A DNA stretch of 22,790 nt from an uncultured Lachnospiraceae bacterium (GTDB taxonomy: Bacteria; Bacillota; Clostridia; Lachnospirales; Lachnospiraceae), in the NCBI GenBank assembly GCA_947383945.1, contig CANDFH010000005.1, positions 1-22,790 of the forward strand, given 5' to 3'. How positions within the stretch are numbered: the first letter of the stretch is position 1; every line of letters starts with the position of its first letter. Positions 153 to 706 of the stretch are shown here, in pieces. The notes under the pieces are model-generated. The model saw only the letters and a list, made by a program, of their open reading frames with translations, made no database searches and was not told where the DNA came from. The position numbers and the translations under genes are program-made.

Positions 153-181
153 ATGTAATGAAGTGGATACCTTCATTACAT
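153..181. repeat. 29-bp recombinase-type site, left copy: ATGTAATGAAG-TGGATAC-CTTCATTACAT (11-bp inverted arms, 7-bp asymmetric spacer)
   Basis: Read directly from the sequence. The arms are perfect reverse complements of each other. The spacer TGGATAC is the reverse complement of the spacer in the right copy at 678-706. Confidence 0.6.
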
Positions 182-222
182 CCCTGTTGAAATCCCTTAT
201 ATTACAAGGATTTTTTTATTTT

Positions 223-246
223 TTGACGGCGAATTTGACGGCAAAT
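223..246 (+). repeat. Tandem 12-mers TTGACGGCGAAT-TTGACGGCAAAT
   Basis: GC-rich 12-mer repeated head-to-tail inside AT-rich DNA. The same element recurs at 368-391. Confidence 0.6.
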
Positions 247-367
247 CAATGGAATAAATTAGAATTTAAAAGACTATACACTTTTAAAAGATATCAATTA
301 TTAAAAAAAGTTTCTTTGATTTATAATAACAATAGGCTTTTCTAAAATAAAATAAATTTATTGTATT

Positions 368-391
368 TTGACGGCGAATCTGACGGCGAAT
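368..391 (+). repeat. Tandem 12-mers TTGACGGCGAAT-CTGACGGCGAAT (second pair)
   Basis: Same 12-mer family as 223-246, in the same orientation, 145 bp away. The whole element could also serve as a promoter: TTGACG, a 17-nt spacer, then TAAAAA. Confidence 0.6.
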
Positions 392-588
392 AAAAAGAAA
401 CAATACTGGAAATATCATTTAAGAGTATATGAAAAGCCTAAGAAATTCGCGGTCTGCAAGAGGATTTGGCAGTTTCACATCAAAAATATTATTTTTATCT
501 TTATTATAATTAAATACTATTAAATTATCAAAAATAAATATATTATTTATTATTTCTATGTAAATATTTGTGAAATTTATCAAATCCA

Positions 589-617
589 TTGACAAGATTG
601 TAATATAGTGATACAAT
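589..617 (+). promoter_or_regulatory. Near-consensus sigma-A promoter: -35 TTGACA (589-594), 17-bp spacer, extended -10 TGaTACAAT (609-617)
   Basis: Read directly. The predicted TSS is about 624. It sits 60 bp inside the right recombination site. In the present orientation it faces the terminator-like right site. Confidence 0.6.
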
Positions 618-677
618 CAGGATACCATTAAAAGAACTTTTTGTATTTTTTTATTTTGTCTTAGTAAATTTATTGGT

Positions 678-706
678 ATGTAATGAAGGTATCCACTTCA
701 TTACCT
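678..706. repeat. 29-bp recombinase-type site, right copy: ATGTAATGAAG-GTATCCA-CTTCATTACCT, inverted relative to 153-181
   Basis: The reverse complement of 678-706 matches 153-181 at 28 of 29 positions. A T8 run follows at 707-714, so on the plus strand this copy also has the shape of an intrinsic terminator. Confidence 0.6.

Follow-up and report, generated by a model that had tools for sequence, protein, structure and literature searches.

The window analysed here is a 22,790-bp stretch of DNA from an uncultured Lachnospiraceae bacterium (GenBank assembly GCA_947383945.1, contig CANDFH010000005.1, positions 1 to 22,790). Its region 153-706 is very probably an inverton, that is, a 496-bp promoter cassette which lies between two inverted core sites and is flipped by a tyrosine recombinase encoded elsewhere. 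An initial annotation, made from the letters of the window, had proposed an invertible ON/OFF promoter for a leftward helicase operon. The proposal is supported by 46 matched site pairs, by inversions that end at the sites, by an inverted-state junction on contig L090 (loci and contigs compared with the window carry L numbers) and by a concerted spacer change between strains of the species. The evidence consists of the architecture of the sites, the covariation of their spacers, site-bounded inversion, the linkage of the sites to a recombinase gene and to helicase and polysaccharide genes, and the inverted junction in the window's own species.

Core sites and the family of switch loci

The helicase-proximal site lies at 153-181 and is composed of an outer arm (153-163, ATGTAATGAAG), a spacer (164-170, TGGATAC) and an inner arm (171-181, CTTCATTACAT). 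The distal site lies at 678-706, with its inner arm at 678-688 (ATGTAATGAAG), its spacer at 689-695 (GTATCCA) and its outer arm at 696-706 (CTTCATTACCT). Direct reading confirmed that the two 29-bp sites are mutually inverted, agree at 28 of 29 positions and have spacers that are exact reverse complements, as the initial annotation had stated. The 11-bp arms had also been described as perfect in both sites. This holds for the left site, an exact 11-7-11 palindrome, but not for the right site, which has a single arm mismatch at 705 in its outer arm. The inverted repeat reaches beyond the sites, to 149-184 and 675-710 (36 nt, 92%). When the 22,790 bp were searched for the site pattern with up to three mismatches allowed, only the copies at 153-181 and 678-706 were found, and the chance expectation was 0 (100 dinucleotide-preserving shuffles of the window). 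The sites were also considered as dif sites of the Xer system, and this identity was rejected: the spacer is 7 bp long whereas dif, a 28-bp site acted on by XerC/XerD, has an 11-6-11 layout and occurs once per replicon, at the terminus, and the copies are paired, inverted and present at many loci per genome.

One genome per species, 185,579 species in total, was scanned with the pattern TGTAATGAAG-N7-CTTCATTAC. The scan gave at least 80 loci. About 70 of those listed were in Lachnospiraceae or Dorea genomes from mouse, rabbit and other guts, with several loci per genome, and the remaining handful came from unrelated phyla and resemble chance hairpins. Two sites were present at 44 of the listed loci, 350-530 bp apart in most and 1.4-2.7 kb apart in four. 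Relaxing the arms added two pairs, giving 46 site pairs in total. The spacers within a pair were exact reverse complements in 46/46, and between loci they varied (38 distinct spacers among 73 sampled loci, frequently of the form TAnnnTA). Arms that are conserved throughout the family are expected of a protein-binding element. A spacer that is free to vary but is matched within each pair behaves as expected of the crossover region of a tyrosine recombinase. The family thus has the features that define lox- and FRT-type sites: inverted arms around an asymmetric spacer of 6-8 bp, and partner spacers that match in every one of the 46 pairs.

The position of the pairs is also conserved. A helicase homologue (52-78% identity) begins 19-204 bp outside one of the sites and reads outward in 40 of the 44 pairs, and three of the other four have truncated flanks. 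All 40 helicase-linked cassettes contain a TTGACA-17-TGnTAnAAT promoter, whose -10 stops 62-97 bp short of one end of the element (site included). Several switch loci occur per genome, with six sampled in CAJTUA and five in CAJTAL. Several polysaccharide loci, each behind its own inverton, is the arrangement known from Bacteroides, to which the present family is a functional analogy only.

Some loci depart from this pattern. In L030 (2747-3096), uniquely among the complete site pairs, both flanks lack a helicase homologue; this pair spans 350 bp and includes a promoter. At L008 (~2589-2678), L022 (1652-3044) and L065 (3391-4739), one site and the cassette promoter are present and a partner site was not detected; the recombinase gene comes next at L022 and L065. 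These single-site loci could represent switches that are locked or degenerate. Selection for spacers that are unique within a genome, as insulation between loci, was unsupported: six identical within-genome pairs were counted and 3.4 were expected by permutation. Some of these identical pairs are the two ends of one switch on separate contigs, but L071 and L073 are separate loci that share one spacer.

Inversion of the cassette and the linked recombinase

All loci were set with the helicase on the left. In this arrangement, three cassette homology groups showed both orientations, with no sign conflicts in the comparison graph. In a whole-locus BLAST comparison of L004 with L057, both flanks aligned on the minus strand at 93%, and the 437 bp containing both sites aligned on the plus strand at 94.5%. 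The same pattern of minus-strand flanks and a plus-strand segment was obtained for L062/L080, L078/L027 and L028/L069. L114 and L115, which come from two samples, have an identical recombinase; their flanks agree at 98-99%, but the 1435-bp segment between them runs in opposite directions. Counting this pair, five comparisons gave clean inversions with the sites as boundaries. Comparing the orientation in related genomes had been proposed as a check in the initial annotation, and homology groups, whole-locus BLAST and the L114/L115 pair all returned both orientations.

The variants in the arms indicate where the strands are exchanged. In L004/L057, a G-to-T variant of the outer arm keeps to the flank and an A-to-T variant of the inner arm keeps to the cassette, which places the crossover between the arms. 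Exchange in the spacer is found in L004/L057 and in L090, at a resolution of arm versus arm and not of single nucleotides. The sites of L114 (2492-2511 and 3907-3926), a more distant lineage, have a well conserved outer arm and spacer, and their inner arms are degenerate. The L114 segment flips despite this, so full palindromy of the site is seemingly not required.

The longest contig in many recombinase clusters measures 1.44-1.55 kb, which matches the length of the cassette with the recombinase gene. One of these, a 1440-bp Logan unitig, has its ends exactly in the two site cores. Branching of the assembly graph at the sites, where both orientations coexist, would produce such ends.

For the window's own species, the inverted state was found on L090 (GCA_948584295.1). 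Nucleotides 1-59 of this contig are the reverse complement of the right flank and lead, by way of a hybrid site, into the beginning of the cassette. The hybrid site consists of the right outer arm with the 705 variant, the spacer and the left inner arm, after which the cassette begins. This junction is possible solely in the flipped state, which indicates that both orientations were present in that sample. In addition, sister strains that are ~95.7% identical have the spacers TAGATAC/GTATCTA in place of TGGATAC/GTATCCA, a compensatory double change. Matched spacers can be explained by selection for homology in the crossover region. They can also be explained by heteroduplex transfer of a change to the partner site at each inversion, and the two explanations are compatible. 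Integrases of the Tn916/Tn1549 type make their two cuts 6-7 bp apart and accept partner sites that differ in sequence across the crossover region. In Joint Genome Institute (JGI) metagenome contigs, the locus-specific left junction had no matches and the promoter block had two unrelated chance matches. Among 21 contigs read that carry the 395-aa protein encoded to the right of the switch, 14 start exactly at window position 1, in the conserved N-terminus of the helicase, and Logan unitigs of the species often begin at window position 575, in the promoter block. The helicase N-terminus and the promoter block are probably repeated at paralogous switch loci of the same genome, judging from these recurrent ends.

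No recombinase gene was detected within the window (tblastn best E = 0.2), in agreement with the initial annotation. Its suggestion of a tyrosine recombinase encoded elsewhere fits the related loci, where a Tn1549-Int-like gene lies inside or beside the sites at nine loci at least. Four long cassettes (L028, L029, L050 and L069) each enclose a recombinase open reading frame (ORF) of 375-395 aa, and homologues are linked to sites also in L018, L022, L065, L027 and L109-L111. The protein combines Phage_integrase with Phage_int_SAM_3, a SAM-like core-binding domain, and its N-terminus has a weak match to AP2. Among solved structures, the Tn1549 integrase, Int, comes nearest (6EMY/6EN0, E = 4e-19). 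A database search returned thousands of relatives, annotated only as 'site-specific integrase'. Xer identity was rejected for this family, whose scores fall far under the Xer cut-offs. A recombinase of the Tn1549-Int-like family would be the one that acts on the window locus.

Several recombinase-bearing loci show further rearrangements. In L069, an insertion sequence (IS) transposase of the DDE_Tnp_1 family (4840-5955) has inserted in the recombinase-bearing segment and lengthened it to 2.7 kb. In two more distant species, L113 (5367-9122) and L115 (1889-5709), the recombinase/helicase switch abuts genes for a TraG-type coupling protein, a MobL relaxase, Toprim and RepA_N. Together with the similarity to Tn1549 Int, these conjugation-gene neighbours hint that the invertase may have been domesticated from the integrase of a conjugative element, or that the locus may travel on one. 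L112 shares the recombinase and the first site with L109-L111 and diverges in mid-cassette from ~6563, where the helicase/polysaccharide locus is replaced by unrelated genes. Either the switch of L112 underwent deletion or rearrangement, or the assembly is chimeric.

The promoter cassette, its operon and the proposed switch

The switched gene enters the window at its left end. Its 5' part occupies 1-133 on the minus strand, with the ATG at 133, 19 bp from the left site, and a ribosome-binding site (RBS) GGAAG (reverse complement of 141-145). This distance leaves no room for a promoter outside the site, so the helicase promoter must be in or beyond the cassette. The 44 residues encoded in the window match ResIII. 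On L001, a longer metagenome contig of the same organism, the full helicase has 1014 aa with ResIII/DEAD and Helicase_C domains and six helicase-associated (HA) repeats. Downstream on that strand lie genes for Bac_transf, an epimerase, glycosyltransferases and a hexapeptide acyltransferase. Across the family, NusG paralogues, initiating sugar transferases, DegT aminotransferases, epimerases and acetyltransferases are encoded downstream of the helicase homologues. By its predicted gene content, the operon behind the switch is one for polysaccharide biosynthesis with the helicase as first gene. These genes rule out the restriction or defence locus that had been considered in the initial annotation.

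The invertible cassette itself covers 182-677 (496 bp). It is non-coding, with no convincing ORF in the enclosed sequence, and homologous cassettes are known in both orientations relative to the helicase gene. Its promoter lies at 589-617 on the plus strand (TTGACA 589-594, a 17-bp spacer, TG 609-610 and TACAAT 612-617). With 11 of 12 consensus positions and an extended -10, it is the best predicted sigma-70-type match in the first 1.2 kb. The -10 ends 60 bp short of the right site and the promoter points away from the helicase. This promoter had already been recognised in the initial annotation, and equivalents are present in 40/40 helicase-linked cassettes. The surrounding block (560-630) is conserved in L013 and L042, the two closest homologues. 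A second promoter-like site, TTGATA-17-TATAAT with 11/12 positions, is present at 531-503 on the minus strand and, as the cassette now lies, points to the helicase. It lacks conservation in both L013 and L042 and is probably a chance match in AT-rich DNA.

Two pairs of tandem boxes on the plus strand are perfectly conserved in the window, L013 and L042: pair A at 223-246 (TTGACGGCGAAT TTGACGGCAAAT), 41 bp inside the promoter-distal site, and pair B at 368-392 (TTGACGGCGAAT CTGACGGCGAATA). Outside the boxes and the promoter block, the window cassette has diverged from both homologues. With cassettes oriented by their promoter, directional boxes of the form YTGACnnn(n)RAWT occur in nearly all of them, ~70-95 nt from the promoter-distal end, and a second tandem set on the same strand sits deeper inside. 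Box matches in the short cassettes share the strand of the promoter, with two exceptions (L019 and L082). In the long ones, box sets A and B have the recombinase gene between them. Our best guess is that the four internal GACGGCGAAT boxes are candidate arm-type sites for the N-terminal domain of the recombinase, or else sites of another factor.

The distal site resembles a terminator. At 680-713 on the plus strand it would form a hairpin with a 9-bp stem and a 7-nt loop (-10.3 kcal/mol), followed by a T run at 706-713, and it is the sole terminator-like match in 1-1200. The initial annotation had placed this run of eight T residues just outside the segment; the run is present but not fully outside, as 706 is the last base of the site. 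The left site, read on the strand of the helicase gene, runs into GTTTG, and only the right site has the features of an intrinsic terminator. Across the family, the 8-nt flank contains on average 5.25 T on the distal side versus 3.1 on the helicase side. A distal flank richer in T fits the proposed OFF-state terminator. The distal hairpin may terminate transcription, and this role is secondary and depends on orientation.

From these elements we propose the following mechanism. A recombinase of the Tn916/Tn1549-integrase type would bind the conserved arms, exchange strands in the 7-bp spacer and flip the cassette. In the sequenced state, taken as OFF, the extended -10 promoter (589-617) would face away from the helicase, and its transcript would run into the distal hairpin and the U8 tract. 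After inversion, in the ON state, the promoter would lie ~60 bp from the proximal site. The transcript would then cross the same hairpin, now followed by GUUUG, and continue through the RBS and ATG into the helicase-HA and polysaccharide genes. The cassette promoter would thus be expected to drive the operon, with orientation altering its transcription, and the helicase may have a regulatory role. The window would be one member of a multi-locus set: one genome contributed at least six sampled helicase-led loci, and in any one assembly most loci would be OFF. Of the 40 helicase-linked loci, 36 have the promoter pointing away from the helicase and 4 have it facing the gene, a bias that fits the prediction of a mostly-OFF multi-locus system. 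The three genomes with several sampled loci each have exactly one ON locus (with incomplete sampling), which also fits such a system.

Several observations weigh against this interpretation. In each of the 12 full-length contigs of the species (L001-L003, L087-L089, L091, L092, L097, L107, L108 and the window), the promoter points away from the helicase. The evidence of the inverted state in the species is one junction only, and it lies on a chimeric contig of a metagenome-assembled genome (MAG). The search for further site copies and recombinases that the initial annotation had suggested yielded both in related genomes, but the recombinase of the window's species was not located; sampling of homologues (P0035, P0090 and P0116) gave switch loci of other species. 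The 36:4 bias would also fit a rarely flipping cassette. The promoter-like site at 503-531 could provide some basal transcription of the helicase in the present orientation. Many family members have just TTTT on both flanks, so the asymmetry between termination and read-through is not universal. The ON and OFF states are, finally, assigned from sequence alone.

Other explanations were compared with the inverton. If the 29-bp element were a dispersed hairpin resembling a repetitive extragenic palindrome (REP), a miniature inverted-repeat transposable element (MITE) or a terminator, it would have no role in recombination, and two copies would bracket ordinary intergenic DNA. The site is multi-copy in Lachnospiraceae genomes and frequently lies at contig ends, A and T runs border many of the copies, as in bidirectional terminators, and the right site scores as a terminator. 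A common dispersed element had been named in the initial annotation as a finding that would speak against a switch. The multiplicity was indeed found, but the copies are inverted pairs upstream of helicase paralogues and not single REP-like terminators. Their fixed place (40/44), the spacer covariation (46/46), the precise inversions bounded by the sites, the tyrosine recombinase gene embedded between sites and the lack of visible target-site duplications or direct repeats in the flanks make a dispersed hairpin scarcely credible. It is also very improbable that the element acts mainly in RNA, either through long-range pairing of the 29-bp copies or as a leader hairpin read by a NusG paralogue, with the covariation reflecting RNA structure. 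NusG paralogues of the LoaP type bind leader hairpins, NusG paralogues come after the helicase in many loci, and outward transcripts from both ends of the cassette would bear an identical hairpin and loop. However, DNA inversion is directly observed, the loops differ between loci although their NusG and helicase paralogues are related, and there is no Rfam match. A role of the hairpin in RNA would be additional at most, not primary.

The switch could have inverton ancestry and now be a fossil, locked with the promoter away from the helicase in the window's species. The single orientation of the 12 contigs and the failure to find the recombinase in this species agree with this, and locked single-site derivatives seemingly exist elsewhere (L008, L022 and L065). 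However, both sites are intact, with the only mismatch in an outer arm, the concerted spacer change between strains of ~95.7% identity needs ongoing exchange or selection, and L090 has an inverted-state junction. We therefore consider a fossil improbable. A further reading is a two-way toggle, in which the present orientation serves a rightward operon for an extracytoplasmic function (ECF) sigma factor and a 395-aa protein (1020-2764). This operon is co-oriented with the promoter and begins 314 bp past the site, and the AU-rich hairpin (-10.3 kcal/mol) may leak. The U8-tailed hairpin stands in between, however, and the distal neighbour is convergent in L013, L042 and ~24/37 loci. The ECF sigma operon was rejected as a conserved second target on this ground, and no such target is conserved. 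The two-way toggle is unlikely, and the one-sided inverton upstream of the helicase operon is preferred over all of these.

The remaining genes of the window are chromosomal housekeeping genes (dnaE, uvrC, ftsH, pyrG and pfk). The PFK protein of this Lachnospiraceae bacterium groups at 90% clustering with that of Lachnoclostridium phytofermentans. A BlaR1-like M56 sensor at 3074-3939 (minus strand), beside a BlaI-like repressor (3949-4317), is present as two short ORFs of 151 and 129 aa. At the same position, the sister strains L087, L088 and L097 encode a single 492-aa protein, so that the sensor gene looks deleted or split in this strain. Two adjoining BspA-type leucine-rich-repeat surface proteins, one with Big_2, are encoded at 19012-21578 (minus strand) and have no relation to the switch. 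An Rfam scan of the whole window gave no family reaching the gathering threshold.

Comparison with known systems

Phase-variable capsules are central to gut persistence, phage evasion and immune shaping in Bacteroides. To our knowledge, no comparable system has been characterised in Lachnospiraceae, one of the dominant gut families. The invertible promoters of the Bacteroides capsular polysaccharide (CPS) loci are those of B. fragilis (PSA-PSH, with Mpi) and B. thetaiotaomicron (CPS, with adjacent tyrosine recombinases), together with the regulators UpxY/UpxZ. They resemble the present family in that a gut commensal has several polysaccharide loci behind short promoter cassettes that are mostly OFF, a NusG paralogue is encoded close to the operon start, and one recombinase can serve many loci. 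In contrast, the present family belongs to Bacillota (Lachnospiraceae), and its sites, full 11-7-11 palindromes, have no sequence relationship to those of Bacteroides. Its recombinase is related to the Tn916/Tn1549-type integrases and is not the serine recombinase Mpi, and the recombinase gene can lie inside the flipping segment. The first gene encodes a ResIII/DEAD helicase with HA repeats and not UpxY.

A broader picture is possible, and we put it forward tentatively. The loci may form an undescribed capsule switchboard of Lachnospiraceae, in which one domesticated integrase serves many lox-like sites, recombination keeps the spacers matched and spacers insulate most loci from one another. 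The helicase-HA protein would then be a locus-specific regulator similar to UpxY/UpxZ, possibly acting through GACGGCGAAT-type boxes. The analysis provides a search signature for genomes and metagenomes, namely GTAATGAAG-N7-CTTCATTAC pairs together with a helicase-HA gene. It names a candidate master recombinase, and the ON polysaccharide locus of a sample would become predictable. The helicase-HA gene, which is invariably first, points to an unstudied regulatory component. Shared arms with differing 7-bp spacers could serve as orthogonal targets for a single enzyme, if spacer identity is required.

Full-text literature searches found no published description of this switch family, although such repeats may be listed in the PhaseFinder tables (Jiang et al. 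2019). The nearest item found is in the hCom2 inverton survey (PMC11892184), where Clostridia inverton group 139 is linked to a tyrosine recombinase. The examples given there differ from the present loci, as they are ~250 bp long and nearly all have a nearby invertase. The site motif strings were not in those supplements of the survey that were searched.

The sites work like loxP/Cre and FRT/Flp sites, with inverted arms, an asymmetric spacer of 7-8 bp that sets orientation, matching partners, and inversion as the outcome of inverted sites. Here, however, 11-bp arms enclose a 7-bp spacer, spacers differ naturally by locus, and the recombinase is no Cre or Flp homologue. The internal direct-repeat boxes and the weak AP2-like N-terminus suggest a complex assisted by arm sites, which is absent in lox and FRT. 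Membership in the lox/FRT group was rejected, as the recombinase is nearest to Tn1549 Int and the conserved boxes suggest accessory sites. The Tn916/Tn1549 integrases are alike in closest structure and similar domain layout, and the L113 and L115 switches abut conjugation genes. They differ in outcome: here the sites are inverted around a promoter or the recombinase's own gene, which leads to inversion of a chromosomal cassette and not to excision and integration.

Two further systems are comparable. RecV of C. difficile (cwpV, flgB, cmrRST and pdcB) is also a tyrosine recombinase of Bacillota that acts in trans on several segments, and its OFF state may involve termination in the leader. Unlike the present family, which has a single site family and a single helicase-led gene family, the RecV repeats are dissimilar and non-palindromic and lie by diverse genes. 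The fim switch of E. coli (FimB/FimE) likewise combines an invertible promoter of ~300-500 bp, a tyrosine recombinase and a surface structure. It differs in its 9-bp repeats with non-palindromic half-sites, and its recombinases have ~200 aa without N-terminal domains and act at a single locus from adjacent genes. The inverton principle is known. The site family, the integrase-type recombinase and the helicase-HA first gene set the present switch apart from the Bacteroides capsule switches, RecV and lox/FRT, none of which it belongs to.

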